Source: Escherichia coli
GTDB lineage: Bacteria > Pseudomonadota > Gammaproteobacteria > Enterobacterales > Enterobacteriaceae
Assembly: GCF_003019035.1 (NCBI RefSeq)
Contig: NZ_CP027448.1
Length of the DNA stretch: 64,000 nucleotides
Strand: one strand, 5' to 3'
Positions 38,379-64,000 of the stretch are shown piece by piece. Position numbers and translations under genes: made by a program. The notes beneath the pieces were generated by a model. That model worked only from the letters and a program-made list of their open reading frames with translations, had not been told where the DNA came from and did not search any database. Position 1 is the stretch's first letter, and each line of letters starts with the position of its first letter.

Positions 38379-39167
38379 TCACCCCGATAATCCACCTTTT
38401 ATCATATTCTCCTGAACCCGCTGCCAGGTTGTCCAGAGATCGTTCTGTTTGTCTTCCCGACGACGGGGAGTAATTATCTGTTCAGGTGTCACTGGCGTTT
38501 TATTTTCATCTTCATACCTGACCATCAGTGCAGCTCTGCCAAATAAATGTTGCTCGTCACTGTTAAGATGAATTTCTTTCATCGCCTCCATATTATCAGT
38601 GACCTTATCAAAGACACCGAGCACTTCATACGCTCCCTCGATAACCTGCCCGACAATATCACCTTTATGTGGAACGCGGATTTCGCCAAAATTATTTCCG
38701 CACACCAGGCCATTTGTGCAGACAAAACGAAAAATTCCGGGGATCATCTGATAACTGGATGAACCATCATGTGAATTAAGCAGGATAATTTCAGGAGCTT
38801 CCTGTCCGTTAATATGCCCTTCCCTGCGAAGACGTAACATATGTTTACTGTATTCGCGACGTCCCAAATCACGAACCCGACTCTGACAGGCAAAGAATGG
38901 CTGGAAACCTTCATCACGTAACTTATTGATGATATTGATTGTTGGAATATACGTATAACGTTCACTCCGGGACTCATGTTTATCACCGGAAAATACCGAA
39001 GGCACGAACTGCATTAATTCATCATCCGTTAAAGGACGTTCACGGCGGATGGAATTATACCGACCAAAACGGGAAGCTAATCGCATAACAGCTACTCCTT
39101 TATGAAAGAATAAATTTAATAAAAAATTTTTCCGCTTAATATCATCCCCCCTGATCTCCATTAACAA
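38379..39167 (-). CDS. Leading-region protein, DUF932-like
   Basis: 262-aa ORF convergent with gene X, the position of F orf273; family assignment from memory only. Confidence 0.6.
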   Translation of the reverse strand: MLMEIRGDDIKRKNFLLNLFFHKGVAVMRLASRFGRYNSIRRERPLTDDELMQFVPSVFSGDKHESRSERYTYIPTINIINKLRDEGFQPFFACQSRVRDLGRREYSKHMLRLRREGHINGQEAPEIILLNSHDGSSSYQMIPGIFRFVCTNGLVCGNNFGEIRVPHKGDIVGQVIEGAYEVLGVFDKVTDNMEAMKEIHLNSDEQHLFGRAALMVRYEDENKTPVTPEQIITPRRREDKQNDLWTTWQRVQENMIKGGLSG

Positions 39168-39204
39168 GATTGCAACAATCAGGAGGGATATTCATCACAT
39201 CCGG

Positions 39205-39492
39205 TCAGCAGATCGCCCGGATATCGAGGCCGGCACGCTTAATCTGACGCAGGAACTGTTTGAAGTGATCGGCTTCCGCAATGTTGATATGGCGGAACTG
39301 CTTATCCACACCCTGACTGAGCGCGTAGCTATAACTGAAGGCCATCTTTTCCGGGTGGCTTTTGCGATATTTTTTCAGCTCAGTCAGGCTGCTGAATTCC
39401 AGGACGTCCCACTCTTCCCTGGTGTTTTTTTTCTTCCCGGCAACAAGAAGCGTGTACGACGCGGTGTTAACGTGGATATTTCGGGTACTCAT
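39205..39492 (-). CDS. Leading-region protein, DUF905-like
   Basis: 95-aa ORF directly downstream of repeat copy 1, with GGAG Shine-Dalgarno; family assignment from memory only. Confidence 0.55.
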   Translation of the reverse strand: MSTRNIHVNTASYTLLVAGKKKNTREEWDVLEFSSLTELKKYRKSHPEKMAFSYSYALSQGVDKQFRHINIAEADHFKQFLRQIKRAGLDIRAIC

Positions 39493-39514
39493 CCTGCTTT
39501 CTCCTCTCTCTGGT

Positions 39515-40142
39515 TTTCAGCCCCCATCATCTTTTGAGTTTCGGGAGCCGCGGTTTTGACGTTTTGCGGGGACCTGCCTTTTGTTCCCTCCGGTATTCAC
39601 CATCACCTTTTTGAGAACCTTCGCCGCAAGGGGCATCACTGCCACGGACGGAAACGACTGTCCGGGGGCAGACCGCAAAAGTTTTTGCCTGCTTTTGAGC
39701 AAAAAGTTTTGCGGGATGTACATTTCACCCCTGGACTGGCGGAGACGGTTGTGGCTGTATCAGCCCCCGGCGACAGGGGCTTAAACAGGTGAATGGCACC
39801 GGACAGAACAACGGGCAGGGACCCGCCGCAACGACGTGAAGCGCGGTTTGCGAAACGGCGTTGCCCCTTACATCCCGGCGGCCTTTTGCCGGGATGCCGG
39901 GAGCGCAGGCCACGGCGCGACAGAGGCGGCGCGACCGGAACGGTCGCTGCAAGCCCGGGGTTTTCACGCATCGGACCGTAGCGACAGCCCGAAACCGCGC
40001 CAGCGGGTTCGGCGGAGACTGGCAGGTGCGCCAGCAGCTGCCTGTCGGAGTCGGGCCTGACGACCGGATGCCGCCAAGCAGCCGGGAGCCGAAGGTGCGC
40101 CCGGCAGATAGGACAACACTGCAGTAGTCAGAATCAGAGCAG
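39515..40142 (-). repeat. Frpo/ssi-like structured repeat, copy 1
   Basis: About 620-bp GC-rich block shared with 44936..45565 and 48265..48880, each directly upstream of a minus-strand gene set. Confidence 0.7.
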
Positions 40143-40413
40143 AAAGAAAAAGAGAATAATCACAGGGAAGGTGATGTGATTTCTGACAGGCCATAACCAG
40201 AGAAGGCGGGGGAAAAGAACGGGCGCCGCAGGCGCGCGTTCATCCCCGTTCCTGAAGGGAAACGACCTTCCTGAAGTCAGGTTGTTCATGCCCGTACAAC
40301 ATCAGCAAGGAGAAAGGGGCTACCGGCGAACCAGCAGCCCCTTTATAAAGGCGCTTCAGTAGTCAGACCAGCATCAGTCCTGAAAAGGCGGGCCTGCGCC
40401 CGCCTCCAGGTTG

Positions 40414-40572
40414 CTACTTACCGGATTCGTAAGCCATGAAAGCCGCCACCTCCCTGTGTCCGTCTCTGTAACGAATCTCGCACAGCGATTTTCGTGTCAG
40501 ATAAGTGAATATCAACAGTGTGAGACACACGATCAACACACACCAGACAAGGGAACTTCGTGGTAGTTTCAT
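40414..40572 (-). CDS. hok: Hok-family membrane toxin
   Basis: Manual minus-strand translation gives [52 protein letters not shown]. Confidence 0.9.
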
Positions 40573-40630
40573 GGCCTTCTTCTCCTTGCGCAAAGCGCGG
40601 TAAGAGGCTATCCTGATGTGGACTAGACAT
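40418..40630 (-). CDS. mok: Mok (modulation of killing) overlapping reading frame
   Basis: 70-aa ORF overlapping hok in another frame, the canonical hok/mok arrangement. Confidence 0.65.
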
Positions 40631-40670
40631 AGGGATGCCTCGTGGTGGTTAATGAAAATTAACTTACTAC
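40600..40670 (+). ncRNA. sok: Sok-like antisense RNA (approximate)
   Basis: Inferred from hok/sok architecture, antisense to the mok start region; boundaries not resolved. Confidence 0.3.
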
Positions 40671-40851
40671 GGGGCTATCTTCTTTCTGCCACACAACACG
40701 GCAACAAACCACCTTCACGTCATGAGGCAGAAAGCCTCAAGCGCCGGGCACATCATAGCCCATATACCTGCACGCTGACCACACTCACTTTCCCTGAAAA
40801 TAATCCGCTCATTCAGACCGTTCACGGGAAATCCGTGTGATTGTTGCCGCA

Positions 40852-41571
40852 TCACGCTGCCTCCCGGAGTTTGTTCGGCACCATCCACCGCTCCATCTCA
40901 CGGACAGCGTGACCGGCCTCTCTTGCTGCAAGACTGGCTTCCGCAATAACCTGCCAGAACGGCATATCCTGCCACTGCCAGCGTTCCATTCCGGCCAGTG
41001 ACGGAAAACGCTCGCCCCACTGCCAGAACAGGGTTTCCAGGTCATGCTCTGCCACCCGGTCACTCCAGCGTGCATGCCAGCTTCCGACTGTTTCCGGCGA
41101 ATGGAATGCCAGTTCGATTTCAGCCTGAGCGACCAGCGCCTGGTACGCACGGGCTTTCTGCTCTGCCTCCCTCGCCTGCTGGCGGCTGTACTTCTGCATG
41201 ACCAGCGCGGATTTATGGCGACTGCGTTCCCTGACACGAAACCGCACCGACGGGAACAAGCGCTCTGCTGCATCACCGGGAAGGGGAAGGAGGCAGACCT
41301 CGCCCTGTGTTTCAATCAGCACATCGATGGCATACAGCCACTGAAGACGGTTGCCGTGCAGTTCTTCTGCGGTCAGGGACGGCATGAAAAATCGCAGGTC
41401 AGACAGCGATATCCTGCGGCTTCCGTTCAGACAGCGGAAAAACGCCCCCGCATACGGATATTCAGCCAGCGTGTTACCCTGATGGCGGCGTTTTTCGGTC
41501 TCCGCCACCGCCCGCCATACGGCCTGTTGCTCTGTGCTGAGGGGAACCAGTGCCTGTGAACGTGCGCTCAT
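40852..41571 (-). CDS. psiA: PsiA
   Basis: 239-aa ORF directly downstream of psiB, as in F-like leading regions. Confidence 0.85.
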
Positions 41572-42005
41572 GCCTGACCTCCTTCCGCCATCAGGATATG
41601 GATGATGTCACTGACGCTGTACCCCTGCGCGTCCAGTGACGCCGCCAGTGCCAGTGAATGGCTGACGGCTTCCGGTGCAAACCGCCGCTGTACCTGAACC
41701 ACCGCAAACGGCTCACCACCGGCATTCACCAGAACCAGCACCCAGACCTGAGAGACATCGCCCGGTGAACATAACGCCAGGTGAAAACGTTCGTGGGCAG
41801 GCGTGAAACGGACCTGGACGGGGAAAAATCCGCCAAACTCGCTGCCGTACTCGCCGTTCATCGTCCAGTTGTCCGGCGCATCCAGCTCCCGCATCACGGC
41901 GTGTGTCAGCTCACGGCGTTCATCACTTCCGGCAGCCCGGATATCTTCATATTCCTGTGTGTTCATGGTCTGTAATACATTCAGGGTCAGTTCAGTTTTC
42001 ATCAC
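41568..42005 (-). CDS. psiB: PsiB (inhibitor of RecA/SOS induction)
   Basis: 145-aa [67 protein letters not shown]..., matching PsiB. Confidence 0.9.
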
Positions 42006-42056
42006 GGTATCTCCCTTGCTGCCGCCCCGTCTCCGGCGGGGCGGTGTGGTTGTTCA

Positions 42057-44015
42057 TCAGGCGGCATCAGCCAGGTTATCGGTGCGTTCAGTGGCATCCG
42101 TCTGTGGGCGTGGTGCACACATCCAGCCAGGCACCCAGCGGTTGTCTTTCATATGGTGCTCTGCATGTTCAGCCGCATCGCCTTTCTTCATCTTCTCCGC
42201 GTCCCGTGCAGCACCGGACAGTCCTGCCTCATTCAGGGCTGCGATAATCTGCGGCTTTTTCAGGTGTCCGAAGAAGTTTGCTTTTGTCGGCTGCCACCAG
42301 TCGCGCATGTGAAAGCCGATGGCGCTTTCCAGCGAATCCAGCGGACTGCGTGACGTGTGACCATACTCACGGGTCTGAACACCGTGGATGCTGCATGCAG
42401 TGCAGAAACTGAGCAGGGACAACAGAACCTCCTGGCTGAGTGACAGGAACGTCGTCATATCCCGTGCCCATCCCTCCGGTAACAGGGCTGCAAGACGGGC
42501 TTTTTCTGCCATCATCGCCATGAATGCGGCACCGTCCTTCCCCGATGGCGCATCGCTGGTCAGCGCATAATGCTCACATTCCAGACGAATTTTTGCGGGA
42601 TTGCTGTACGCCCCGCTACCAAACACATTCAGGCAGAGCGTCCATGCCAGCAGTGCCAGGGATTTGTCCGGCTGTTGCATAAGCGCCGCCTGGACTGCCA
42701 GCGTGCGCTCTGAGGACATTTTCGTCAGCAGTGGCAGACTGATTTCCTCCACGGAGGCTTTCTCCTGCACCTGTTCCGTGTGGTCAGCGTCGTCAGCCAC
42801 ATCATCCTCACTGCGTAACTGCACACCACGCTGGACACATACGTTTCCATAACGCCAGGACACCACCACGCCACTTCCGGCACGCATCTCCGGCGTCCAC
42901 GCCCTGACCTTCGCCATGCAGTCAATCAGCTTCATTTCTGCTTCCAGCAGGTCGGATTCCTCACACTGGTTTTCCAGCGCATCGTAACGTGCCATCAGTT
43001 CGTTCAGGCGTTCTTCTTCTGCCTCCGTCAGCACCGCTTCCGGCTCCGGCAGACTGCGGTATGTTCCGGCATCCTCACGGCACTCACCAACGGCCTCCAT
43101 GCGTCCGGCACACCATCCCCAGCCCTCGGCTTCCCGAAGGTGTTCAGCAACAGCCTGGAGTTTTTCCAGCAGGGCAGCATCGAGCGCAACACAGTCCACA
43201 TAGCCACCCTCGTCGTCGCTGAACAAATCGGTGCGCAGTTCATCTGGCGAGAAGGCATCAGCCCCCACAAAGCGGAATTTAGTGTTCCCCACCACCGCCA
43301 CTTCACTTTCGGTCACCAGACGACGAATGGTCTGTACTCCCGGTTTTCCGCCCCATCCCGACTGACAGGCAGCTTCAAACACCTGCACCTGACGCGCGGT
43401 GTCGTTCTCCAGCGCCAGCGCCTGACAGTGCTCTGTGGTGATGCGGTCTTCTGCCAGCGCATCGAGGATGACAGGCGCAAGGTCTGCCAGTTTCAGCATT
43501 CGCTGAACGTGGCGGGGTGAATAGCCCAGCAAATCACCGATTTGTGCAGGCGTTTTGCCTTCCTGCGCCATTGCACGGAATCCGGCAATCTGTTCGGCAG
43601 GGTGCATATCCCGACGATGACCGTTTTCAGTCATTGATGCGGCAGTCGCCAGTTCCTGCGGAATAACCTTCACGCGGACAGGCCAGTCAGCAGGAAGGAT
43701 GTTGCGCTCTGCCAGCATGTTGAGTGCTGCCAGTCGGCGACCGCCTGCGGCGACACCGTAACGGTCACCTGGCAGGGCATGAACAACCAGATTCTGCAGC
43801 AGGCCGACGCCCTTAATGGACTCTGCCAGTTCGCTGACGGACTCCGCAGAATACGGCACCGTGCGCACATTCAGCGGTGACTTAATCAGCGAGGCCAGCG
43901 GCACGCTCACTTCAGCCGTCTCCGCCAGCAGGGCCGACAGGACTGTTTCCTGCGTTTTTGCAGGTTTACGGCTGGATTTACGCTCCGTTTTTACCTTAGA
44001 CTCTGTAACTGACAT
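42057..44015 (-). CDS. ParB-like nuclease-domain protein of the leading region
   Basis: Large ORF with N-terminal ParB-like region (GLLQNLVVHALPGDRYGVAAGGRRLAA); start set at MSVTESKVK, track ORF starts at 44111. Confidence 0.8.
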   Translation of the reverse strand: MSVTESKVKTERKSSRKPAKTQETVLSALLAETAEVSVPLASLIKSPLNVRTVPYSAESVSELAESIKGVGLLQNLVVHALPGDRYGVAAGGRRLAALNMLAERNILPADWPVRVKVIPQELATAASMTENGHRRDMHPAEQIAGFRAMAQEGKTPAQIGDLLGYSPRHVQRMLKLADLAPVILDALAEDRITTEHCQALALENDTARQVQVFEAACQSGWGGKPGVQTIRRLVTESEVAVVGNTKFRFVGADAFSPDELRTDLFSDDEGGYVDCVALDAALLEKLQAVAEHLREAEGWGWCAGRMEAVGECREDAGTYRSLPEPEAVLTEAEEERLNELMARYDALENQCEESDLLEAEMKLIDCMAKVRAWTPEMRAGSGVVVSWRYGNVCVQRGVQLRSEDDVADDADHTEQVQEKASVEEISLPLLTKMSSERTLAVQAALMQQPDKSLALLAWTLCLNVFGSGAYSNPAKIRLECEHYALTSDAPSGKDGAAFMAMMAEKARLAALLPEGWARDMTTFLSLSQEVLLSLLSFCTACSIHGVQTREYGHTSRSPLDSLESAIGFHMRDWWQPTKANFFGHLKKPQIIAALNEAGLSGAARDAEKMKKGDAAEHAEHHMKDNRWVPGWMCAPRPQTDATERTDNLADAA

Positions 44016-44079
44016 ATATTTCTCCTTTGACCGGGGTGGTTGTATGTCTGCCGGACGTGATCCCCGTCCGGCACCTCTC

Positions 44080-45565
<1,486 letters not shown>

Positions 45566-45667
45566 CAGGAAAAAGAAGAACAGTAGCAGTAGCAGTAGCA
45601 GGAACAACAACATCAGTAACAGACAAATGACAGGCATGAAGAAACAGAAGCCCCCATCAGAACGTCC

Positions 45668-45700
45668 GCGTAATGAAAGGGGCGGCGCGTGAGCGCGGCC
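45668..45700. terminator. GC-rich hairpin downstream of the methyltransferase gene
   Basis: gaaaggggcggcgcgtgagcgcggcccctttc inverted repeat. Confidence 0.4.
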
Positions 45701-45777
45701 CCTTTCAGCGCCACCGGCGCGCGGTCTTTTCCCGGCGCGGGCAGACGGGCATTTATCCTCCCGCCTGCCCGGCGTCT

Positions 45778-46341
45778 TCAGGCACGCAGACGAATAATCA
45801 TCGTCGGGACATCGGTATAAGCAAACGTGCCGCGCGGCAGCTCCTCGCGGACGTCAGAAAACGGTAACAGCTTCTCCTGCTGGCGTGGTCCGTTGAGACA
45901 GACGGCGACCAGCACGCCACCCGGACGCAACAGGGAAAAGGCCCGCAGGATATGCCGGATATCCTGCCCGTGGCTGAACGGCGGATTCATGATAACCCGG
46001 CTGTAATACTGCGCCGGCTGCCATTCCATGAAGTCGCCACACTGAACCCTGACACCGTTAAAATTTTCCCGCAGATACCGGACCAGCCCGCTGTTGATTT
46101 CCACCGCATCACACATGGCCCCCGGCGCGGTATCCCGAATCGCCCGCAGTATGGCCCCGGTGCCGGCAGAGGGTTCCAGAATGTGATCACGGTTGCTGAT
46201 CTCCGCCAGCATCACCAGGCGATCACAGACCGGGGCAGGAGTCACAAAAAGCTGAGATTCAGCCCGGATTTCAGCAACCGGCGCGGCGTTATCCAGCCTT
46301 GCGCGCATCAGCCGGATACGTTCTCTTAACTGACTGTGCAT
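45778..46341 (-). CDS. SAM-dependent methyltransferase (NPPF motif)
   Basis: 187-aa ORF with motif I-like EPSAGTGAI and motif IV NPPF. Confidence 0.75.
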   Translation of the reverse strand: MHSQLRERIRLMRARLDNAAPVAEIRAESQLFVTPAPVCDRLVMLAEISNRDHILEPSAGTGAILRAIRDTAPGAMCDAVEINSGLVRYLRENFNGVRVQCGDFMEWQPAQYYSRVIMNPPFSHGQDIRHILRAFSLLRPGGVLVAVCLNGPRQQEKLLPFSDVREELPRGTFAYTDVPTMIIRLRA

Positions 46342-46388
46342 GTCATTATCTCCGTCATCCCCCGGGGATTTTCCCGGGGGGATATACC

Positions 46389-47750: not shown

Positions 47751-47801
47751 AAAATGTTCTCCTTCCGTCTGTTGCCGCCCCTCGCGGGGCGGCTCACCTC
47801 A

Positions 47802-49683: not shown

Positions 49684-49729
49684 GTTCTCGTCTCCTTTAC
49701 AGGGGCGGCATTGCCGCCCCGTCCGTTAA

Positions 49730-54423: not shown

Positions 54424-54446
54424 CAAAAGAAAAGAGAGATGAGAAC

Positions 54447-54695
54447 ATGATCCGCATTGAAATTCTTTTCGACCGCCAGAGCACAAAAAACCTCAAATCA
54501 GGCACACTTCAGGCGCTACAGAATGAAATCGAACAACGACTGAAACCACACTACCCGGAAATCTGGCTGCGTATAGACCAGGGCAGCGCCCCGTCTGTAT
54601 CTGTCACAGGAGCCCGCAACGACAAGGATAAAGAACGTATCCTGTCTCTGCTGGAAGAAATCTGGCAGGACGACAGCTGGCTGCCTGCAGCATGA
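54447..54695 (+). CDS. impC: ImpC (DinI-family SOS regulator)
   Basis: MIRIEILFDRQS...ILSLLEEIWQDDSWLP resembles the DinI C-terminus; first gene of an imp/umu-type operon; track ORF starts earlier at 54387. Confidence 0.75.
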   Translation: MIRIEILFDRQSTKNLKSGTLQALQNEIEQRLKPHYPEIWLRIDQGSAPSVSVTGARNDKDKERILSLLEEIWQDDSWLPAA

Positions 54696-55129
54696 GTACC
54701 GTTTATCACCGTCCGGCTGACCCTTCAGGCGATGACAGTTACGTGCGACCGTTGTTTGCCGATCGTTGCCAGGCCGGTTTTCCTTCGCCTGCCACTGATT
54801 ATGCTGAGCAGGAACTGGATCTGAACAGCTATTGCATCAGCAGACCTGCAGCCACCTTCTTTCTGCGCGCCAGCGGTGAATCGATGAACCAGGCTGACGT
54901 GCAGAATGGTGATCTGCTGGTAGTGGACAGGGCCGAAAAACCACAACACGGGGACATCGTTATCGCTGAGATCGACGGTGAGTTCACCGTCAAACGACTG
55001 CTGTTGCGCCCACGCCCGGCACTGGAGCCGGTTTCAGACAGCCCGGAGTTCCGCACACTGTATCCGGAAAACATCTGTATTTTTGGTGTTGTCACTCACG
55101 TGATACACAGGACGCGGGAGTTACGCTGA
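54692..55129 (+). CDS. impA: ImpA (UmuD-like S24 peptidase-domain protein)
   Basis: 145-aa ORF with LexA/UmuD-type Ser-Lys dyad context (ASGESM ... K) and overlap with impB start. Confidence 0.85.
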   Translation: MSTVYHRPADPSGDDSYVRPLFADRCQAGFPSPATDYAEQELDLNSYCISRPAATFFLRASGESMNQADVQNGDLLVVDRAEKPQHGDIVIAEIDGEFTVKRLLLRPRPALEPVSDSPEFRTLYPENICIFGVVTHVIHRTRELR

Positions 55130-55251
55130 TGTTTACACTGGCTGATATCAACAGTTTCTACGCCTCATGTGAAAAAGTTTTCCGCCCGGACCTTCGCAAC
55201 GAACCGGTCATCGTACTCAGCAATAACGATGGCTGTGTGATCGCACGCAGC
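55126..55251 (+). pseudogene. impB: impB (UmuC-like Y-family polymerase), 5' fragment cut by insertion
   Basis: MFTLADINSFYASCEKVFRPDLRNEPVIVLSNNDGCVIARS matches the UmuC N-terminus, then leaves homology and hits a stop at about 55284. Confidence 0.8.
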
Positions 55252-55301
55252 CCAGATTATGTGGAATTGCAAGTAACGTTGTAGTGCTGATGAGGAAAAT
55301 T

Positions 55302-57530
55302 TTATCTGACTACAATATTGATATCGTTTTCCGCAACAATCAGCATCACGGCAGGTAAACCCTCCACACGCATTTTCTGGTGTAATTTTTTGATTAAATT
55401 ATCATCTTCATTACTGGCTTTTGCGGAAAAGCCTTGTGGATGGGAGTGCCATTCGCCAACATAATCGACAACACGAGCGGTCAACTGGTGAACCCGTTCT
55501 AATGCTTCTTGTTGTCCCGCTTCTCCCCGGACAAAGGAGGCTGGAGAGGATTTACTGTCGATAGGTTCAGGGAGCACGTCAACCAGAATAATCGTTTTGT
55601 TCTTAAAATCTGTTATGCCAACAATTGCACCTCCTGTTTCATTAGGCAGTGCCTGTAAGCGGGTGTGCTGCAATTTTTGCGCTAAGCCCTGGTCATATTT
55701 AACAACCCATTCGCCAGAAATTATAGATACCACGGAATAGAGTTCAATTTCATGTGCATCCATCGCGCCTGATATTTCATCAGATACCCAGATACACAAT
55801 CGAGCATTTCCTTTGAGTGCAGTCTGGCGAAGTTGGCGTGAGAGGATACCGGCATGAACATGAATACATTCACTGGACATACGTACAGAAATATCCCGAC
55901 ATCCACCACCGACCCAACGATCGCCATAATTGTGCTGTAGGTGAGTACTTCCCCACTCACTGCTCAAAATTGCCCGATAGTATTGCCCCTCAATTGCATC
56001 AATTCGGCATTGTCTGTCTACATCCTCCATTAACATCACGCTAGACTGACCCGATGGAGTCAGAAACAGGCTAACTATTCTGGGTATATCATCTTTTAAC
56101 ACTAGAGTCCTCGGCACCTCAAAGGTGGTACTGACATCCACAACTAAGTCTGCCTCATTCATTGCCTTAGCAATATCATCATCGTCATCAAGAATACTTT
56201 TATGGATCGCCTGAGGGAGGGGCTCATGCGGATAAATAGATTTGGCAATATGCTGAATAATATGGGGTTTTGAGACTCCAATATGACAATCAAACCCAAT
56301 ATGGCGAGACAAATTATGTGGAAGAAGCCGATCTGGATCAATAAAAGTCCATGTCCCCCACCCCATTCGAATCCAAATATCAGCCAATGTACTACCAAGA
56401 GCGCCAACTCCAGCTAAAATACCTCGAAAAGCTGCACTCTCTGAATCAACAGCAGATATGTCTCTCGCATGTGTGGCCTTCATAGCCGAACGTATTTCAA
56501 CTGGTAAAAGCGGTAATTGTCGCCACTTGGTACTAATTGATCCGCCAAGAAGCCGTACGCGATGCTGTACTCCTCGCTCATTTTTTGGCGCCAGCATATC
56601 TAGTGCAGTGGCAAGTTCACCGAGTGAACTTTGCACAACATAGCCCATCACATCCGTACGTTCTGTTTCTCCGTTTCTTAGACGGGGGATCCAAAGCAGG
56701 ATAAGTAAGCCTTCTCCTTTACCAGACGTTGGGCGGATACCATCACTTGGTATTGCTTCATAAACAGCGTCAGTTAGTGGTTTTAGGAGCTCACTTCCCC
56801 ATTCATTAAGTTGTTCTTCTAATTTTCCCAGATTATCCGGGTATGTAGCCACCGTAGAAACATCGACAGGAGGAACAGCAATAGTTAATAAGCGAAATGG
56901 CTTAACGCTTGAGGTATCTTGTTCTGGTACAGCCCTTAAAATAATCGGTCGCCCCTCACTGACCATCTGGAGACTGAGCTTATTGTCAGTCGCGTGATGA
57001 TAATCGGGGTAATTGGCTGGCAAAATGAGCTGATAGGGACTCAAATAAAAAAGTTGCTCAAGTGGCTGATCTTCTCGATGTAGATGCAGTTCGGCCGATT
57101 CTCTAAGCCACCAAAAAATGCGCTCAAGGAATCTCTCGGGGGTCCAACTGCGCTCAACTGCGCTCCAGGAGGCCTCATATAGGCAAAGAATTCGTGGTGA
57201 GCCAGGTTCTCCAGCATGCTGGTGAGAAAGAACAGGGAAATCTTTCCGCAATGCATGAACCAAGATAGGTATGCTTGATTTGGGATTGACCTCAATAGCC
57301 AATCGTTCTTTACGACGAATACGGGCTTGATTACCAGAAGCCACAGTCCCATCAGCAGCATCAATGATTAGATATTCCGAGCGGTTATCATTTATTTCAG
57401 AAAATCGTAATTCTCTGACTGTGACGTAAGGATGATTCTCGCATGCTTTAAGCAGCGAAATCGTTTGTGGATAAAGGCTATCGCGCCCCGATGAATCGAG
57501 GCGCTCACCCAATTCGAAATATTCGATCAT
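55302..57530 (-). CDS. Fused E2-like / E1-like (ThiF/MoeB) / JAB-MPN peptidase protein
   Basis: 742-aa ORF: N-terminal H...C pattern (HQHAGEPGSPRILCLY, UBC-like); central Rossmann GILAGVGALGSTLADIWIRMGWGTWTFIDPDRLLPHNLSRH (E1 signature); C-terminal JAMM-like EWHSHPQGFSAKASNEDD. Confidence 0.75.
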   Translation of the reverse strand: MIEYFELGERLDSSGRDSLYPQTISLLKACENHPYVTVRELRFSEINDNRSEYLIIDAADGTVASGNQARIRRKERLAIEVNPKSSIPILVHALRKDFPVLSHQHAGEPGSPRILCLYEASWSAVERSWTPERFLERIFWWLRESAELHLHREDQPLEQLFYLSPYQLILPANYPDYHHATDNKLSLQMVSEGRPIILRAVPEQDTSSVKPFRLLTIAVPPVDVSTVATYPDNLGKLEEQLNEWGSELLKPLTDAVYEAIPSDGIRPTSGKGEGLLILLWIPRLRNGETERTDVMGYVVQSSLGELATALDMLAPKNERGVQHRVRLLGGSISTKWRQLPLLPVEIRSAMKATHARDISAVDSESAAFRGILAGVGALGSTLADIWIRMGWGTWTFIDPDRLLPHNLSRHIGFDCHIGVSKPHIIQHIAKSIYPHEPLPQAIHKSILDDDDDIAKAMNEADLVVDVSTTFEVPRTLVLKDDIPRIVSLFLTPSGQSSVMLMEDVDRQCRIDAIEGQYYRAILSSEWGSTHLQHNYGDRWVGGGCRDISVRMSSECIHVHAGILSRQLRQTALKGNARLCIWVSDEISGAMDAHEIELYSVVSIISGEWVVKYDQGLAQKLQHTRLQALPNETGGAIVGITDFKNKTIILVDVLPEPIDSKSSPASFVRGEAGQQEALERVHQLTARVVDYVGEWHSHPQGFSAKASNEDDNLIKKLHQKMRVEGLPAVMLIVAENDINIVVR

Positions 57531-58714
57531 TGGTTTGATACACCTGCCCTAGGAGCGGCGGCCGTAGCAGCACTTACCGCAGCTGAAACAGCACCAACAA
57601 TAGCGGGTATTAACTTCCCGTCTCCAGCCACTTCAAATTCAAGGAACGCTGTATCTTTAAGATCCCCCGTACAGCTAAACCAACCATCAACACTGTCCAG
57701 AATATCCTCATACTCACGCTTAGCCCGGATGCACGGTGGATCATAATCATCATCAAGTATCTGATTGCTACTCGATACAATTGTTGCCCCGGAACGAGCC
57801 TGACCTAAAGCATTACGGGCCGCATCACAAACTTCAGCATTCTCCCCCCATTGTGACCAGCTATCATAGGAAAGTGAATGCCATGAACAATGATGCGGTG
57901 TGAGGAGAAGATCATATTCTAGTGCCTCAGCATTGCTTTTGTAACGATCCCATAATCGCTCCCAGATGAGAACTTCTGCGTCTCCACCTAATAGAAAGTG
58001 CATAGGATTACGGGAATATGCAGAGGGCAGTATTTTCATGTTCATGATGATACTGGATTCGTTTTTAGAAAGAGCTTCTTCCAAATATTCATCATCTTCA
58101 TGTGGTGCGGGCGCCAGAAGCTGTGCGGAGAACACTTCTGAAATTTGCCCGTCAATTCTGGTGAATGTATCTCCAGCTTTGATAAGAATGGCACTCAGAT
58201 CATCTGTTTTGCCATTAATATCTTCACCCATGATAAGGATTCGATTACCGCTAGATGCATAACCATGTTCCCGCCAGTATTTTACTCGGCGCCGTGCTTC
58301 TGTATTAAATGCCTGAGCATCTTCGCAAAGTGTGTGACTTTTGGAACGACGCCGAAAAATCAATGGTGATGACCACAATTCTCGAATAATGATACGCTTT
58401 TCTGAACGTTTCACATCGTCATCTGGATAATCTTCAGGACGGCCCAGCCAGAAATGTTTACGCAGGCCACCGCAATGATCCTGATCGGGATGACTGAGCA
58501 TAAAAACATCAATAAAGGGACGATCTTTTTCATCATACTTCAATCTGCTACGTAATGCCGAGGCAACATCAGGTGTGTCATCATTGGGGTTATCAGCAGC
58601 AGAGCGAATATGTACATCAATCAGAATGGATGTGCCCCGGGTGTCGGCCAAACGTACCAGTGTCATATCACCGTTGCCGACTTGGAAAAAAGTAATTTTG
58701 GCTGCCATCGACAT
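57527..58714 (-). CDS. Metallo-beta-lactamase-fold protein
   Basis: 395-aa ORF with HPDQDHCGG (HxHxDH metal site); stop overlaps the downstream start (ATGA). Confidence 0.8.
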   Translation of the reverse strand: MSMAAKITFFQVGNGDMTLVRLADTRGTSILIDVHIRSAADNPNDDTPDVASALRSRLKYDEKDRPFIDVFMLSHPDQDHCGGLRKHFWLGRPEDYPDDDVKRSEKRIIIRELWSSPLIFRRRSKSHTLCEDAQAFNTEARRRVKYWREHGYASSGNRILIMGEDINGKTDDLSAILIKAGDTFTRIDGQISEVFSAQLLAPAPHEDDEYLEEALSKNESSIIMNMKILPSAYSRNPMHFLLGGDAEVLIWERLWDRYKSNAEALEYDLLLTPHHCSWHSLSYDSWSQWGENAEVCDAARNALGQARSGATIVSSSNQILDDDYDPPCIRAKREYEDILDSVDGWFSCTGDLKDTAFLEFEVAGDGKLIPAIVGAVSAAVSAATAAAPRAGVSNQ

Positions 58715-58767
58715 CTCCTTTAGGGATACGAAAGATTGAGGTTAAGAGCATCTATTGCTAAGATACA

Positions 58768-58796
58768 TCTAGTAATTATACTAGTCTAGTAATTAG
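58768..58796. promoter_or_regulatory. Direct repeats in the divergent promoter region; candidate operator
   Basis: tctagtaatta at 58768..58778 and 58785..58795, in the 128-bp gap between divergent operons. Confidence 0.35.
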
Positions 58797-58842
58797 ACGT
58801 ATATTTTGGACTTAAATTGTAAGTACAGGAAATTATTGATAA

Positions 58843-59697
58843 ATGAGTGATAAAATGGTGAGAACTGGTCATTGGAGCCAAGAAAGACGGCTTGAATTCA
58901 TCGATTTTCGCCTACTGTGGGAAGGTCGGCTTAACCGTGCAGATCTCACGACATTTTTCAGAATTTCAGTTCCGCAAGCCTCATTAGATTTGGCAAAATA
59001 TCAAGAAGTTGCGCCAAACAACATGGTGTATGATCGAACTCAGAAGGCTTACATTACGACTCCTGATTTCAAACCTGTTTTTACAAGCTTTGACAGTAAT
59101 CATTACCTGAATGAACTACTTGGGCGAGAAAATGAAATAGTGGATCCTGATGATAGTTTCATTGGGTGGGTACCCCCGGTAGCCAGCCTTCCTCTCCCTG
59201 CCAGGAAAGTACAACCTGAAATATTGATTGATTTAATTCGAGCCATGCAAAGAAAACAGGCTTTGGTTGTTGATTATCGCTCAATGACTAATGAACCAGC
59301 AATTCGTACGCTATACCCAACAGCATTTGCACATGATGGGCATCGGTGGCATGTTCGTGCTTATTGTTTTAAGTCTACAATGTTTAAAGATTTTGTTCTT
59401 GGTAGGTTTTTTAAAATCGTTGAATTTGTTTCCCCACCGACATCAATTCCACAAGATGTGGACTGGAATACATTTATTGACGTGGTAATAGGTCCAAACC
59501 CTAACTACGATATGAATAAACGGCTATCTATTGAACATGATTATCAAATGGTAAAAGGAGAAGCAAAAATCCACATACGTAAAGCGCAATTATATTATCT
59601 TAATCGTCGATTAAATTTGGATGTAAATAGCGATGGTTCAATAGATGACAAACAGCAGATCATCATGCTCAGAATAGACGAGTCTAAAACCTATTAA
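58843..59697 (+). CDS. wHTH-WYL regulator (BrxR/CapW-like)
   Basis: 284-aa ORF with N-terminal HTH-like region and WYL-like segment LVVDYRSMTNEPAIRTLYPTAFAHDGHRWHVRAYCFKSTMFKDFVLGRF. Confidence 0.65.
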   Translation: MSDKMVRTGHWSQERRLEFIDFRLLWEGRLNRADLTTFFRISVPQASLDLAKYQEVAPNNMVYDRTQKAYITTPDFKPVFTSFDSNHYLNELLGRENEIVDPDDSFIGWVPPVASLPLPARKVQPEILIDLIRAMQRKQALVVDYRSMTNEPAIRTLYPTAFAHDGHRWHVRAYCFKSTMFKDFVLGRFFKIVEFVSPPTSIPQDVDWNTFIDVVIGPNPNYDMNKRLSIEHDYQMVKGEAKIHIRKAQLYYLNRRLNLDVNSDGSIDDKQQIIMLRIDESKTY

Positions 59698-59709
59698 GGG
59701 AATATTTAT

Positions 59710-60228
59710 ATGAATGCGAATGATGTTAACAAACGGAATAAAGAATGGATGATTGTAATCATTATTATCTATCTTTTTATTTTGTTATGTATAGCAACAT
59801 ACGCTATTGGGGCTATGTCTCTAGGTTGGTTACCAACACCTTACGCACCATTAAGGGTGCCACTGATGTGCGGAGCAATTGCCTATATAGGTGGTTGTTT
59901 ATATTGTTTTCGTGCAATTTACCTCAATAAATGTATTAGAAAACAATGGGATCCAGATTGGCATGTATGGTATTTCATTCGCCCACTGACCAGTACAATC
60001 GCAGGTGCTATCAGTTATTTATTCCTTAAGGCGGGGTTGTTAGTTTTGGAGTCTAGTTCCAATGTAGGAGCTAGTGAAATGGGTTTCTTTGCGCTGGCAT
60101 TTATTGCTGGTTTTAACGTCGATAAATTTGTCGCAAAAATCGAGGAAGTTGCAAAGGCTGTCTGGGGTATTGAAAAAACTCGAAGCTCGACTAATAATGA
60201 TGCGAAAAATTCGGAAAAAAAAGAATAG
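59710..60228 (+). CDS. Small multi-pass membrane protein (about 4 TM helices)
   Basis: 172-aa hydrophobic ORF 13 bp downstream of the regulator gene. Confidence 0.6.
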   Translation: MNANDVNKRNKEWMIVIIIIYLFILLCIATYAIGAMSLGWLPTPYAPLRVPLMCGAIAYIGGCLYCFRAIYLNKCIRKQWDPDWHVWYFIRPLTSTIAGAISYLFLKAGLLVLESSSNVGASEMGFFALAFIAGFNVDKFVAKIEEVAKAVWGIEKTRSSTNNDAKNSEKKE

Positions 60229-60274
60229 TCTGGATGTATTTAAATTAAAATGAAATTAGTGCTGAGCTATTTTA

Positions 60275-61594
60275 TTACTTTCTCTTATTTCCTGGGGTCG
60301 CGCCCCCAGTGAGCTTATTCAAAAGTTTGTCCACTGCCTGTATATCGTTTTCTACAGCGGCTTGTTCGTCATCAGTCAAAGGGATTTCCTGCATCAGCTT
60401 GAGTAGATTCTGGCGACCTTCCAAGTATTGTGCTTCAGATGAAGATTTTGGCATATAAAATGAGCATTTTGCACATGCCATCCGATGGGGGCATTGCTCA
60501 AAAAAGTCATAAGTACAGAAACCGTGTCCAAGATCATAATAACGCCATGGCTTCCCGGATGCTACCAGCCCTTCAGCTATCGCGTCTTGATCAATGAGAA
60601 CTGAAACCATGCGGCGATTACATTCAAAGTAACCAGCTTTATCCAGTGATCCTGCCAACCTCGTCGGTGTAATTTCGACATAATGTCGGGTAGATTCAGG
60701 TGAAGAATGCCCCAACCATTTCTGTAGCTCAAAAATATCAAGTGGTTCCCTGGCGTTGTAAAGCTGACTGGCTATAGTGGCTCTTGCCCGATGGCTGGTG
60801 ATTTTACCTCTGGCATCCTGCTCAGGTATACCAGCCTTTCTGCATAGCAAAGGGATTAGCGAATTATTAATATAACTACTGTGTACCCGTTTCCCCCTGT
60901 GCATGAACAAAAAACGGACGCTTTCACCTGTTTTAGAATCTTCCTGGAGGGGGTGGGGGTTACGAACAAGTTCCCATTGTTCGATATATTCCCCGATAAT
61001 AGGGTCAACTGGCTTTGTGAATGCCGCGTAAGTCTTGCTAACGGGTACATCTATCAGACAGATACGGGATACATTATTTTCTTCTGGCTGTTGCCAGCGG
61101 ATACACCCACACTGCATACGTAGAATTTCATCACGTCTGAGGCCTCCAAATAACCAGAGAACGCTGAGTGCTCTGACCATCTCCAGTGGATAAAAATAAG
61201 GATATGCAACACAGTTTGGTAAATCCGACTCCTGCAGGTTCTGTCCGGCGTGAAGTAATTTACACCACATATCATCGGCCACAATACGAGGCTCTGGTCC
61301 AACCAGGGAAGTCAAGCTACGCGGTGCCCTGAAAACTCTTTCTGGGCTGAATCGTACAGGTATCCATCCCCATTCCTGCAAGTCATGAAAGAAAGTTCTA
61401 ATATGACCCAACATCCTGGCTCTCGCTGCAGGCATCATCATTTTGCCACGACGGTCACGATACATGCCCCCAGGGGTTGCCCATTCACCAACTTTCATTC
61501 TACAAGCGGCGGTCACCCAGACGATCGCGGTGTCCCGTGTCCAATCAGATGGTGACAGACAGGTTGGATAGCACTCAGCTAACCAGCTGACCAC
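60275..61594 (-). CDS. Tyrosine recombinase (large, with C-terminal Cys/His cluster)
   Basis: 439-aa ORF with GGLRRDE, HRARAT, LGHSSPESTRHY catalytic-type motifs and CPHRMACAKC cluster. Confidence 0.8.
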   Translation of the reverse strand: MVSWLAECYPTCLSPSDWTRDTAIVWVTAACRMKVGEWATPGGMYRDRRGKMMMPAARARMLGHIRTFFHDLQEWGWIPVRFSPERVFRAPRSLTSLVGPEPRIVADDMWCKLLHAGQNLQESDLPNCVAYPYFYPLEMVRALSVLWLFGGLRRDEILRMQCGCIRWQQPEENNVSRICLIDVPVSKTYAAFTKPVDPIIGEYIEQWELVRNPHPLQEDSKTGESVRFLFMHRGKRVHSSYINNSLIPLLCRKAGIPEQDARGKITSHRARATIASQLYNAREPLDIFELQKWLGHSSPESTRHYVEITPTRLAGSLDKAGYFECNRRMVSVLIDQDAIAEGLVASGKPWRYYDLGHGFCTYDFFEQCPHRMACAKCSFYMPKSSSEAQYLEGRQNLLKLMQEIPLTDDEQAAVENDIQAVDKLLNKLTGGATPGNKRK

Positions 61595-62525
61595 ACTTTA
61601 GCAAAACGTACCAACCGGACAAAATAGATGAAGGGCGAAGTACTGAGGTAGCACGCCACCGTTTGCACCATACCAGCCATTTAGTTGGTACATCAGCTGT
61701 TGCATTATATTCGCGGGGAGGACGGCGACGTTGTGTTATTCGGTAATCAACCCCTTCCTCAATAGTCCCTGATGCAGCCAGTATACGCGATAGAGTAGCT
61801 GAGGCTTCCCGGAGGGAATCCGGGCACGTTGCAGCAATCTGTTGCAACGTGGTCACGGTGATATGGTCTAGTTGAGCATCCCTTTGCAGAAGCATTGCCA
61901 TACACATGGCATTTCTGATGCCGTTGTTCCGACTATCACGAGGCACATATCCCAGAACCTGCATCATATTGTCAAGCTGGCTGACGGCAAAATCGGTGCT
62001 CTGTCGGCCAAAAACCTTAAGACAGAGCCGATATTGATAGAATATGCCACAGTGTTCCAGCCGCTCAAACCCACATAGCAACCATGCTAACGCTATAACA
62101 TATTGCCGACAGTTGCCGCTGGCTCCAAACCGTCGACGAAATTCCCCTTCGCTGTTGCAAATAACTTCTAACCACTCTTCTTGTGTCCAGGCCCAGTATG
62201 TTTTCCGGATGCGCTGCATCTCTAGGACTATATCGTGAATAGATGAATTGTAGGGGGCCTTGGCCGCATGCATTTTTGTTAGCGTGTCGCGTAGTGGTAA
62301 AAGAAGGCGGGAAAGCCGTTTTTGTATATCAGGTGACCAGTTTTTACCTCCTTGCTGGAAGTGGTCGACCAATGTATCCAGTGCCGCAAGCTCGCTTTCA
62401 GAGATCTCCGATCGGGTATCCCAAAGTAGGGCAGGAAGACTGAGTGATGTTGTCGGACAAGGCGCTGTATGTTCAGATTGCATCATGGAGAAGGATCCTG
62501 CTGTTGTAGTACAGTAAGGCGGCAA
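61575..62525 (-). CDS. Recombinase-associated ORF (overlaps both flanking recombinase genes)
   Basis: 316-aa ORF overlapping the upstream gene by 43 nt and the downstream gene by 20 nt; no catalytic motifs seen; could be an accessory protein or the frameshifted N-terminal part of the 439-aa recombinase. Confidence 0.5.
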   Translation of the reverse strand: MPPYCTTTAGSFSMMQSEHTAPCPTTSLSLPALLWDTRSEISESELAALDTLVDHFQQGGKNWSPDIQKRLSRLLLPLRDTLTKMHAAKAPYNSSIHDIVLEMQRIRKTYWAWTQEEWLEVICNSEGEFRRRFGASGNCRQYVIALAWLLCGFERLEHCGIFYQYRLCLKVFGRQSTDFAVSQLDNMMQVLGYVPRDSRNNGIRNAMCMAMLLQRDAQLDHITVTTLQQIAATCPDSLREASATLSRILAASGTIEEGVDYRITQRRRPPREYNATADVPTKWLVWCKRWRATSVLRPSSILSGWYVLLKCGQLVS

Positions 62526-63535
62526 GTATGCAAGGATGCGACCGTGTAATTGAAACGACTACTCAGATCACGTGCGCTGAGATGAATATAGAGCAGAGTT
62601 GACTGGATACGACGGTGGCCAGCGAATGCAGCAATTTCGTGGATGTCCCACCCCACGCGTGCCAGTTCTGTCAGACAAAGATGTCGGAATGTGTGGGTGC
62701 TGATGAGTGGAAGATCAGCCTTAATAGCTAAACCGCGAACTACTTTTGACCAAGTCCAGTTGCTAATAGGTTCTGCCCGATTACGCGGAGAGCGTGAGAG
62801 AAACAACGGACCGCGAGATGAGCTTAGCATACGACGTTCAGTGAGCCATGCTGTGTAGAGTTCCCCCGTCACAGGAGAATAGGGCACAACCCGACCAAAG
62901 CGGTTTTTGGTATGCTCAGCGCGCACAGTGAGCAAGCGTTGAGAAGGGTCAATATCTCCGGTAGCTACTGTGCAAAGTTCTTCTCTGCGTAATCCGCAGT
63001 CGTAGGCCAGTGCCAGCATAAAACGAGTACGGATATCAGCTTGTCCGGCTACCTCAAGAAAGCGCAACCACTCCGCATCATCCGGGATCCACGGTAGCCG
63101 CCGCTGCAACGGCACTATACCAGCTTTTCCTTTCCCTCCGTTTTTCCAGACACCTCGTCTGACAGGATTTCTCTCCCGTATCCCCTCCTCACAAAGCCAA
63201 TAGTTGTACAGTCGTACCACCGTCAGCCGGTGGCGGATAGTGGCAGCTGCCAGCTGGCGACCGGTATGCAGGCTGCGGACATAGAGTGCGACCGTATCAC
63301 GTCCAGCGACAGCAGCCGTCAGGGCAACAGAGTGACAGAAAGCGAGCCAGTCATTGACGCCACGGGCATAGGCATCAATGGTGTTTGGAGCACACAGCAG
63401 GTCCTCCTGCAGGCACACCCACCGGCAAGCTGAAGGATCGGCCGACAGAAAAGGCAGCGCATCCAGCAGTTTCTTGTGCACAGCATCCCCCTTTTCGATA
63501 ACAGAATGTGTTGTATGAAATATAGTCAATTCCAA
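62483..63535 (-). CDS. Tyrosine recombinase (XerC/D-like)
   Basis: 350-aa ORF with GLRREE, HTFRH, GHRRIQSTLLYIHL catalytic-type motifs. Confidence 0.85.
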   Translation of the reverse strand: MELTIFHTTHSVIEKGDAVHKKLLDALPFLSADPSACRWVCLQEDLLCAPNTIDAYARGVNDWLAFCHSVALTAAVAGRDTVALYVRSLHTGRQLAAATIRHRLTVVRLYNYWLCEEGIRERNPVRRGVWKNGGKGKAGIVPLQRRLPWIPDDAEWLRFLEVAGQADIRTRFMLALAYDCGLRREELCTVATGDIDPSQRLLTVRAEHTKNRFGRVVPYSPVTGELYTAWLTERRMLSSSRGPLFLSRSPRNRAEPISNWTWSKVVRGLAIKADLPLISTHTFRHLCLTELARVGWDIHEIAAFAGHRRIQSTLLYIHLSARDLSSRFNYTVASLHTCRLTVLQQQDPSP

Positions 63536-63543
63536 ATAACATA

Positions 63544-64000
63544 GAAGCGAAGCGGCTGGGCATAAAAATGGGAGTACCGTGGTTTCAGCTGAAGTCGGTG
63601 AAATTTCCGGAGCCGGTCATCGCCTTCTCCAGTAATTACGCGCTATACGCATCGATGTCGAACAGGGTTATGTCTCATCTCGAGGAGCTGGCGCCGGGCG
63701 TGGAGCAGTACAGTATTGATGAGATGTTTCTCGACGTGCGGGGTATTGACAGCTGCATCGATTTCGAGGATTTCGGCCGGCAGCTGCGTGAACACGTCAG
63801 GAACGGGACTGGCCTGACTATCGGTGTCGGAATGGGGCTAACCAAAACGCTGGCAAAGTCAGCACAGTGGGCTTCCAAAGAGTGGCCACAGTTTGGTGGC
63901 GTGCTGGCGTTAACGCCAGGCAATATCCGCCGTACGGAAAAACTGCTGTCACTGCAGCCGGTGGAGGAAATCTGGGGGGTAGGCAGCAGGATATCAAAGA
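63544..64000 (+). pseudogene. impB: impB (UmuC-like), 3' portion after the insertion (continues beyond window end)
   Basis: In-frame EAKRLGIKMGVPWFQLKSVKFPEPVIAFSSNYALYASMSNRVMSHLEELAPGVEQYSIDEMFLDVRGID... matches the UmuC region that follows the N-terminal fragment. Confidence 0.8.

Follow-up and report, generated by a model that had tools for sequence, protein, structure and literature searches.

Introduction

The rulB gene of plasmid pWW0, a member of the umuC family, is an active, site-specific hotspot for mobile DNA known as 'integron-like elements' (ILEs), and LexA-driven expression of their integrases has been discussed (Rhodes et al. 2014). In another field, the arrangement of E1, E2 and JAB domains with a metallo-beta-lactamase (MBL)-fold protein was described as operon type 6a (Iyer, Burroughs and Aravind 2006). 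Later papers cite this 6A-MBL system as experimentally validated in Pseudomonas aeruginosa (van den Berg et al. 2024, as represented in the papers that cite it), a review describes its confirmation as a defence, and a 2025 preprint names it among the known P. aeruginosa defences against jumbo phages. [quoted passage not shown] We analysed a stretch of 64,000 nucleotides from Escherichia coli (contig NZ_CP027448.1, assembly GCF_003019035.1), hereafter called the window, which is part of an F-type conjugative plasmid and in which an 8,289-bp element carrying 6A-MBL genes and two tyrosine recombinase genes interrupts umuC where the leading region ends. An earlier note on this DNA had proposed that genes for evading host immunity lie directly adjacent to an acquired element with candidate immunity functions, which may protect the plasmid-bearing host. 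With a probability of roughly 0.8, we read the locus as two known things placed side by side, a leading region and a 6A-MBL element inserted in umuC, the location of the element being a consequence of umuC targeting.

Results

The element is inserted precisely in codon 43 of umuC

We compared window positions 38600-63547 with the plasmid database PLSDB by megablast; all counts from this search are lower bounds. Among the matches listed, the leading region was about 97% identical at the DNA level to at least 4,600 other plasmids, and in nearly all records listed the match ran from query position 1 to 16,654 or 16,657 and ended there, at window 55253-55256. Plasmid pAPEC-O2-R has an intact umuC directly after umuD and represents the unoccupied site, which was found in thousands of plasmids. 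We aligned the junctions of the window, pSE11-2 and an Escherichia albertii plasmid with the empty site in pAPEC-O2-R. Comparison with the unoccupied umuC showed that the element sits precisely in codon 43 and that target bases were neither duplicated nor lost; by tblastn, UmuC residues 1-42 are encoded at 55129-55256 and the reading resumes with residue 43 at 63546. With a hyphen marking each joint, the junctions follow the pattern ...CCC(A/G)GA-TTATGTGGAATTG...CAATTCCAAATAACATAGA-(A/G)GC..., where TTATGTGGAATTG begins the cargo end of the element and CAATTCCAAATAACATAGA closes its recombinase end, and the two ends are imperfect inverted repeats. The G+C content is 38-47% in the element and its cargo and 54-62% in the leading region and surroundings. 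The homology stop, the empty-site alignment and the shift in G+C bear out the view that the right-hand block is an acquired mobile element, and the end proposed for it in the earlier note, 63547, lies within 2 bp of the mapped end at 63545.

The 3' piece of umuC in the window, like that of pSE11-2, shows only 62% amino acid identity to F-type UmuC, whereas the 5' stump is of the F type. Because the two halves come from different alleles, the backbone is mosaic, with recombination at or close to the element. At position -3 of the left junction stands an A (CCCAGA in the window and GCAGA on the AMSCJX02 chromosome) that could be a heteroduplex copy of the CATAGA end; we rejected this idea because 55 E. 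coli genomes with an intact, unoccupied umuC have that A; it is a natural synonymous polymorphism. It is also unlikely that a 'footprint' of the SE type, variable from copy to copy, accounts for the CATAGA at the recombinase end, since the same bases are found in the 74%-identical copy of IncN plasmid pR14-S7K7-2 and CATATA in the 60% lineage.

The cargo is a 6A-MBL pair within a conserved four-gene cassette

The four cargo proteins were recognised correctly in the earlier note as E2/E1/JAB, MBL, WYL regulator and membrane protein, the last being hydrophobic and 172 amino acids long. In the first of these, Cap2_3, Pfam placed Prok-E2_A at residues 67-174, ThiF at 369-472 and Prok-JAB at 617-734. 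The MBL gene and cap2_3 are co-oriented, the stop of the former overlapping the start of the latter by 4 bp, and the products are 76% and 65% identical, respectively, to their P. aeruginosa orthologues. Both proteins exceed the equivalog cut-offs of the NCBIfam 'anti-phage 6A-MBL system' models (Table 1), so that on sequence grounds the pair is the published anti-phage 6A-MBL pair, and the immunity role put forward earlier as a candidate gains support.

The motifs of catalytic type are intact: the metal motif HPDQDH of the MBL-fold protein, the glycine-rich loop of E1 and the HSH..S..D motif of JAB. The candidate E1 cysteine is C544 (GGGCRD) and the candidate E2 cysteine C116 (RILCLYE), and both are conserved in the Pseudomonas orthologue. 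Among 115 near-full-length homologues of the MBL-fold protein, every one keeps the H-x-D-x-DH metal motif, and 107 have PRAG in the C-terminal tail, which in the window protein reads ...AAAPRAG-VSNQ. Twenty of these terminate exactly at the glycine of PRAG; the others have 2-7 variable residues after it, except for one with 32.

In PADLOC-DB v2.0.0 the only matches were to the generic CBASS models 'E1-E2' and 'JAB' and, for the MBL-fold protein, a partial one to 'LmuA'; the former two would point to CBASS. We rejected this assignment because there is no cGAS/DncV-like nucleotidyltransferase (CD-NTase): PADLOC and NCBIfam found neither a CD-NTase nor a CBASS effector among the six proteins of the element, and all of the space in the element is accounted for.

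The WYL protein belongs to the CapW/BrxR family. Its residues 10-282 align to residues 10-284 of Stenotrophomonas maltophilia CapW (7tb6) with an E value of 1e-62, and it also matches BrxR (7t8k, 2.5e-38); it is 67% identical to its P. aeruginosa partner, which has the architecture WHD_BrxR/WYL/BrxR_CTD. CapW and BrxR are reported to be repressors whose binding site is a palindrome within the promoter region that they have in common with a divergently transcribed defence operon. In the window, the divergent region between the WYL gene and the MBL-cap2_3 operon is 128 bp long and holds a candidate operator, two copies of CTAGTAATTA of which the second lies inside the palindrome GTCTA-N5-TAGAC, overlapping a promoter-like site at 58755-58782. 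The fourth gene begins 13 bp downstream of the WYL gene. Its product has a strongly hydrophobic N-terminal segment and no family match in Pfam, NCBIfam or PADLOC, and is 80-81% identical to the gene product at the same position in two P. aeruginosa contexts.

The WYL and membrane protein genes had been taken in the earlier note for a second candidate system, and this part of the proposal does not stand. In P. aeruginosa, two different MBL orthologues in unrelated contexts, one of them beside a TniQ/TniB transposon, are accompanied by the same four genes in the same arrangement, and in Klebsiella and E. coli the four-gene cassette is also carried by a second lineage of recombinases. Because the same four genes are conserved at 65-80% identity in those unrelated P. 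aeruginosa contexts, the sequence comparison places the WYL and membrane protein genes with MBL-cap2_3 in one conserved four-gene cassette. All four open reading frames (ORFs) are full length and are 99.4-100% identical among dozens of plasmids and chromosomes.

The recombinases of the window copy

Two tyrosine recombinases fill the right 3.3 kb of the element, and no further core ORF was found in it. The large recombinase gene is split by a +1 frameshift at window position 61588, as seen by alignment with the intact copies at loci L003 and L004 (K. pneumoniae NZ_CP060050), and the translation of the intact gene displays the residues R, H-x-x-R, H and Y. The extra base lies outside any homopolymer and is present in pSE11-2 too. 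The gene is in two pieces in many E. coli and Salmonella plasmid copies and intact in the copies of E. albertii (for example plasmid NZ_CP099872), Klebsiella and the AMSCJX02 chromosome. The open frame of the small recombinase extends to 63535. The frameshift in the large recombinase and the different allelic origins of the umuC halves make it probable that the window copy is immobile and that it arrived by plasmid recombination, not by fresh transposition.

The element and its relatives are found in umuC-family genes of plasmids and chromosomes

The element or parts of it were present in 330 of the 72,556 PLSDB plasmids (Klebsiella, 184; Escherichia, 96), at full length in 37. Among 5,426 complete E. 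coli genomes, 35 contained the cargo, which occupied 16 places on chromosomes and 28 on plasmids. Chromosomal copies have the arrangement hlyE-umuD-umuC'-(element)-'umuC-dsbB, with the element at the same point between GA and G of the Glu43 codon; an intact 73-bp chromosomal umuC site was seen in 5,378 genomes. Strain AMSCJX02 has one copy on the chromosome and one on plasmid pAMSC6, which are 100% identical over 8,289 positions, have different, precise flanks and keep the recombinases intact. This pair is the best available evidence of movement, and its identity implies that the intact form moved recently.

Related elements carry different cargo. In E. coli IncN plasmid pR14-S7K7-2 (5905-12220), an element related at 74-84% interrupts mucB at the equivalent codon and carries non-defence genes, for LysR, hydrolase and isocitrate-lyase-family proteins; it lies between mucA and ardK/ardR (antirestriction regulators) plus ardB. 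An Enterobacter IncF element in umuC carries a type III CBASS with its own CapW. This is seen in the NDM-1 IncF plasmid pNDM1_EClY2403 of Enterobacter cloacae (3361-13211), where the recombinases are 60-63% identical, the end motifs and the umuC position are the same, and the type III-like CBASS comprises a cyclase, two accessory genes, an exonuclease, a nucleosidase-type effector and a CapW-type WYL regulator. F-like plasmids of Citrobacter and Klebsiella grimontii have a type II restriction-modification system plus an ATPase in an element at umuC, a Pantoea F-like plasmid has amidohydrolase, SDR and LysR genes, and a P. aeruginosa megaplasmid has chlorite dismutase and cupin genes; various other relatives are remnants that are riddled with insertion sequences or have lost their cargo. 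An 85%-identity variant with the same four-gene cassette lies in umuC of the human faecal E. coli strain G3/10 (chromosome NZ_CP060075, 6001-15500), its large recombinase being disrupted by an IS3-family element. As judged from these sequences, the element family is a general cargo carrier, for which defence genes are a common but not an exclusive load.

Compared with the window, Klebsiella IncFIB(K) plasmids carry the element in the opposite orientation with respect to umuC. In K. pneumoniae NZ_CP060050 (12274-13880), 41 umuC codons after umuD are fused in frame to the small integrase, the open frame running on into umuC', and the product is annotated as an integrase of 394 amino acids. This fusion suggests that the integrase could be expressed from the umuD promoter, although a perfect LexA box sought upstream of the Klebsiella umuD was not found, only a degenerate half-site being seen. 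The reconstructed Klebsiella target has no duplication, and its junction is shifted 6 bp upstream as compared with the E. coli-type junction. Whichever way the element is turned, the 6-bp segment of the target lies beside the cargo end and CATAGA beside the recombinase end. We infer that insertion is a 6-bp staggered exchange that would not depend on homology, and the circular joint of an excised element would read ...CATAGA-TTATGTGG....

Many Klebsiella plasmids hold the four cargo genes only, the recombinases having been lost, and the cassette in them is fixed plasmid cargo. In K. pneumoniae NZ_CP029739 (6001-11636), the match ends at element position 5588, beside lacIZY.

The leading region and its presumably SOS-controlled end

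The tra genes occupy 1-36.5 kb of the window on the minus strand. Since the nick sequence of the origin of transfer (oriT) is on the plus strand, that strand is the one transferred; positions with higher numbers reach the recipient first, and the leading region starts at 37.4 kb and runs upward. It spans 37.4-55.3 kb and is of the standard F type, with ssb, psiB/psiA, antirestriction and methylase genes that follow the nick and are templated by the transferred strand. NCBIfam and Pfam confirmed the earlier calls of ssb, psiB, methyltransferases and an antirestriction candidate (Table 1). As for these genes being 'directly adjacent' to the acquired element, the juxtaposition is real, but dinI-umuD-umuC' (54447-55256) lies in between.

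A direct repeat of about 640 bp occurs three times in the leading region (39513-40150, 44936-45573 and 48252-48887), each time upstream of a gene block. The copies are 95-97% alike, except that the left half of the third is 67%. Presumably they correspond to the single-strand promoter repeats (Frpo/ssi) known from F-like plasmids.

A promoter-like site at 54377-54406 immediately precedes the LexA box, a perfect one, for which we assume an SOS function from the known LexA consensus. In the interval 54377-55302, the presumably SOS-controlled dinI-umuD-umuC' transcript runs toward the 3' end of cap2_3, whose stop lies 45 bp inside the element, and a scan found no terminator-like site between umuC' and cap2_3. 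Because this transcript is aimed at cap2_3, SOS induction could yield antisense RNA against the defence operon.

Table 1. Positions, strands and supporting evidence of features in the window
Feature	Position	Strand	Evidence or remark
F-type oriT nick site	37359-37375	+	exact 17-nt match to GTGGGGTGTGGTGCTTT; flanked by traM and an SLT gene, as in annotated relatives
Leading-region establishment/anti-defence block	38379-54098	-	NCBIfam, Pfam, ~97% DNA identity to annotated F-like plasmids
DUF932 gene	within 38379-54098	-
psiA	40852-41571	-	NCBIfam, 419 bits (cut-off 243)
psiB	41568-42005	-	NCBIfam, 276 bits (cut-off 100)
ParB-like protein gene	42057-44111	-	NCBIfam
Plasmid ssb	44375-44953	-	NCBIfam, 384 bits (cut-off 265)
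Class-I SAM (S-adenosylmethionine) methyltransferase-like ORF	45778-46341	-	weak NCBIfam hits only
DUF3560 gene	46389-47750	-
ArdB/KlcA-type antirestriction gene	49730-50155	-	Pfam Antirestrict PF03230, E 8e-27
DNA methyltransferase (DNA methylase)	52060-52743	-	NCBIfam, 486 bits (cut-off 244)
DUF1281 gene	53127-54098	-
LexA (SOS) box CTGTATATGCATACAG	54408-54423	+	only CTGT-N8-ACAG match in the window; upstream of dinI-umuD
dinI-like gene	54447-54695	+	annotations of homologous loci
umuD	54692-55129	+	annotations of homologous loci
umuC 5' stump (umuC')	55129-55256	+	42 codons plus 2 bases; tblastn with pAPEC-O2-R UmuC, junction alignment
Inserted mobile element	55257-63545		8,289 bp; empty-site and multi-locus junction comparison
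cap2_3, E2-E1-JAB triple-module protein, 742 aa	55302-57530	-	NCBIfam NF058523, 661 bits (cut-off 320)
MBL-fold protein, 395 aa	57527-58714	-	NCBIfam NF058524, 426 bits (cut-off 220)
Candidate operator	58768-58798		two CTAGTAATTA copies, the second in a palindrome
CapW/BrxR-family WYL transcription factor, 284 aa	58843-59697	+	Pfam WYL; divergent from MBL-cap2_3
Hydrophobic (membrane) protein, 172 aa	59710-60228	+	fourth cassette gene
Large tyrosine recombinase pseudogene	60275-62486	-	736 aa when intact; Pfam Phage_integrase 439-606
Small XerC/D-like tyrosine recombinase, 332 aa	62483-63481	-	NCBIfam XerC/XerD-like hits
umuC 3' part, from codon 43	63546-64000	+	tblastn, junction alignment; continues beyond the window edge

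Discussion

We explain the position of the element beside anti-defence genes by its targeting of umuC, which F-like plasmids keep at the end of the leading region, because the same element or its relatives are found in chromosomal umuC, in IncN mucB and in Klebsiella umuC, some of them with non-defence cargo. The significance that had been attached to the position next to an anti-defence island is thus accounted for by site-specific targeting.

The two parts of the locus would work as follows. The leading-region genes (ssb, psiB/psiA, the methyltransferases and the ArdB/KlcA-type protein) help the incoming plasmid to establish itself and to evade restriction. In the element, the CapW/BrxR-type repressor, co-transcribed with the membrane protein, would hold the divergent MBL-cap2_3 operon in the off state until released by a signal. 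The MBL-fold enzyme is made with a short C-terminal extension after the conserved PRAG, and the JAB domain may trim it to expose Gly391, which the E1 domain may then adenylate. By way of the E1 and E2 domains and their cysteines, the enzyme could be conjugated to a target, which might activate or localise a probably nucleolytic anti-phage activity, and the JAB domain might also reverse the conjugation. For the cGAS of type II CBASS, conservation of the C-terminal Gly/Ala is confined to systems that have Cap2/Cap3; this residue is needed for thioester formation and conjugation, and Cap3 cleaves exactly at the C-terminus of cGAS, even in a linear fusion.

Several points weigh against this interpretation. 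The trimming and conjugation steps are drawn from the PRAG motif and from the analogy with Cap2/Cap3 and cGAS; a PDB search with the sequences of the two 6A-MBL proteins yielded no solved structure for either, and the literature searched for work on the mechanism of the MBL pathway gave passing mentions only. The defence role in E. coli is argued from sequence matches and from papers that cite the original validation. The candidate operator is recognised by a consensus and a repeat beside a promoter-like match, and such matches are not in excess in the region (19, as compared with 16.1 ± 4.2 in shuffled sequence). The model gives the 172-aa membrane protein no role. Finally, defence cargo recurs at this plasmid position in several genera, and the umuC location may carry some selective advantage.

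A bolder proposal can be made. Here umuC would serve as a docking port, wired to the SOS response, by which conjugative plasmids exchange defence cassettes with chromosomes, and, as a separate part, the membrane protein, whose 80% identity between E. coli and P. aeruginosa is higher than that of the enzymes, would be the effector or the conjugation target of 6A-MBL. In co-directional insertions, the LexA-controlled umuD promoter would drive the fusion of UmuC' and recombinase, and DNA damage or incoming single-stranded plasmid DNA would trigger hopping between the plasmid and the chromosomal umuC of the recipient. Insertion would take place without homology and in either orientation across the 6-bp segment, and the inverted orientation in the window would lock the element. 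Taken as a whole, with both its parts, we regard this proposal as doubtful, at perhaps one chance in a handful.

Functional coupling, which takes the idea of the earlier note further, is less probable still. In this reading, the defence cassette is kept in the leading region for early entry and expression, and works together with the anti-defence genes against phages or competing elements. On the transferred strand the element does begin only 17.9 kb past the nick, the leading genes share a strand with the MBL-cap2_3 operon and the recombinases, and in F-like plasmids of three genera (Enterobacter, Citrobacter and Klebsiella) CBASS, restriction-modification and 6A-MBL systems recur at umuC beside genes for ArdA or methylases. 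However, the identical element sits in chromosomal umuC, both orientations occur, and relatives are found at this site with metabolic genes or a type III effector as their cargo. Moreover, the three Frpo-like repeats all lie at 39.5-48.9 kb, none of them in or beside the element, and the cassette has a CapW-type repressor of its own. We therefore consider coupling unlikely and prefer umuC targeting as the reason for the location.

It was raised by Iyer et al. (2006) that mobile E1/E2/JAB operons might serve addiction, and in this case the cassette would stabilise the element or the plasmid by opposed conjugating and deconjugating activities on a host target, instead of giving anti-phage immunity. 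Retention of the four cargo genes by Klebsiella plasmids after loss of the recombinases, that is, independently of mobility, would agree with this. NCBI curators and later papers, however, treat 6A-MBL as a tested anti-phage system, the regulator belongs to a family associated with defence systems, and the cargo is infrequent in E. coli (35 of 5,426 genomes), so that we hold addiction to be very improbable. That the element is a dead relic with drifting cargo and no current function on the plasmid can hardly be upheld, for although the large recombinase is frameshifted, the flanks are mosaic and relatives are riddled with insertion sequences, the frameshift touches mobility only, the catalytic-type motifs are intact and the four full-length cargo ORFs are 99.4-100% identical across dozens of replicons.

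Read as a 6A-MBL element placed by umuC targeting, the locus has several implications. A recently validated and mechanistically unexplored ubiquitin-like system circulates on F-type, IncN-related and Klebsiella plasmids and on E. coli chromosomes, and its carrier is a dedicated umuC-targeting element. The natural 6A-MBL unit may be defined as four genes, not two, and the PRAG C-terminus with its putatively removable extension is a testable handle on the mechanism. Defence genes beside plasmid anti-defence islands can be explained without functional coupling, umuC at the leading-region end being a landing site for a family of tyrosine-recombinase elements. Every such insertion also knocks out a plasmid or chromosomal umuC, the catalytic subunit of the error-prone polymerase V. 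In the literature searched, we found no paper on this enterobacterial element or on umuC as a plasmid defence hotspot, the nearest being the work on the rulB ILE (Rhodes et al. 2014) and reports on tmexCD1 and umuC; as far as we checked, the enterobacterial 6A-MBL element, the four-gene unit and the PRAG tail have not been described there.

Comparison with known systems

The carrier is, by sequence, related to the Pseudomonas rulB ILEs. The small and large recombinases of the rulB ILE of P. syringae pDC3000A, which carries type III-effector cargo, are 43% and 35% identical to the window pair. The ILEs share with the window element a conserved cargo-end motif, TTATGTGGAAT, variable cargo, tandem small and large recombinases at one end, and site-specific insertion in a umuC-family gene downstream of a LexA-controlled umuD/rulA. 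The UmuC'-integrase arrangement of the Klebsiella copies is that described for the Pseudomonas ILEs. The window differs in that its cargo end faces umuD, so that the recombinases are not behind the umuD promoter, and in the point of insertion, which is codon 43 in the window and about codon 76 in pDC3000A and in Citrobacter. In the pWW0 ILEs there are three recombinases and tetR, unlike the two recombinases of the window, whose cargo is a defence system.

Transposons of the SE and GInt types resemble the element in having tyrosine recombinases, imperfect inverted-repeat ends, site-specific targets and joints without target duplication across a 6-bp segment, and umuC is reported as a target for the tmexCD1 elements, which are of the SE type. 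We rejected membership in SE, whose core is intA-tfp-intB-srap with a tfp that lacks RHRY, whereas the window element has two recombinases and keeps RHRY, and in GInt, which has ginABCD (three integrase-like genes and a small protein) as against two recombinase genes in the window. The Tn554 family, with the tyrosine recombinases TnpA and TnpB plus TnpC, has a similar small-plus-large layout of recombinases; no TnpC-like ORF is present in the window element.

Type II CBASS has related E1, E2 and JAB domains (by PADLOC and by comparison with Cap2, 7tsq) and, in cGAS, a partner enzyme with a conserved C-terminal glycine, and a CapW-type regulator is present with the window cassette. The cassette differs in having neither a CD-NTase nor a cyclic-nucleotide effector, and its three domains are fused in one protein. 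By analogy, the presumed substrate would be the MBL-fold hydrolase, which mostly has a short extension after the glycine.

The left 17 kb of the window is a textbook example of the leading-region anti-defence islands (Samuel et al. 2024, as described in text that cites it). In itself, this region shows nothing different from the known islands, and what is new is limited to what docks at its umuC end. The cargo there has the two defining genes of P. aeruginosa 6A-MBL in the same order and with overlapping ORFs, at scores 2-fold above the cut-offs; the WYL and membrane protein genes lie outside the NCBIfam definition, which consists of the two proteins. As identified from its sequence, the window system differs from that of P. 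aeruginosa in being located on an F-type plasmid of E. coli, within a recombinase element that targets umuC.

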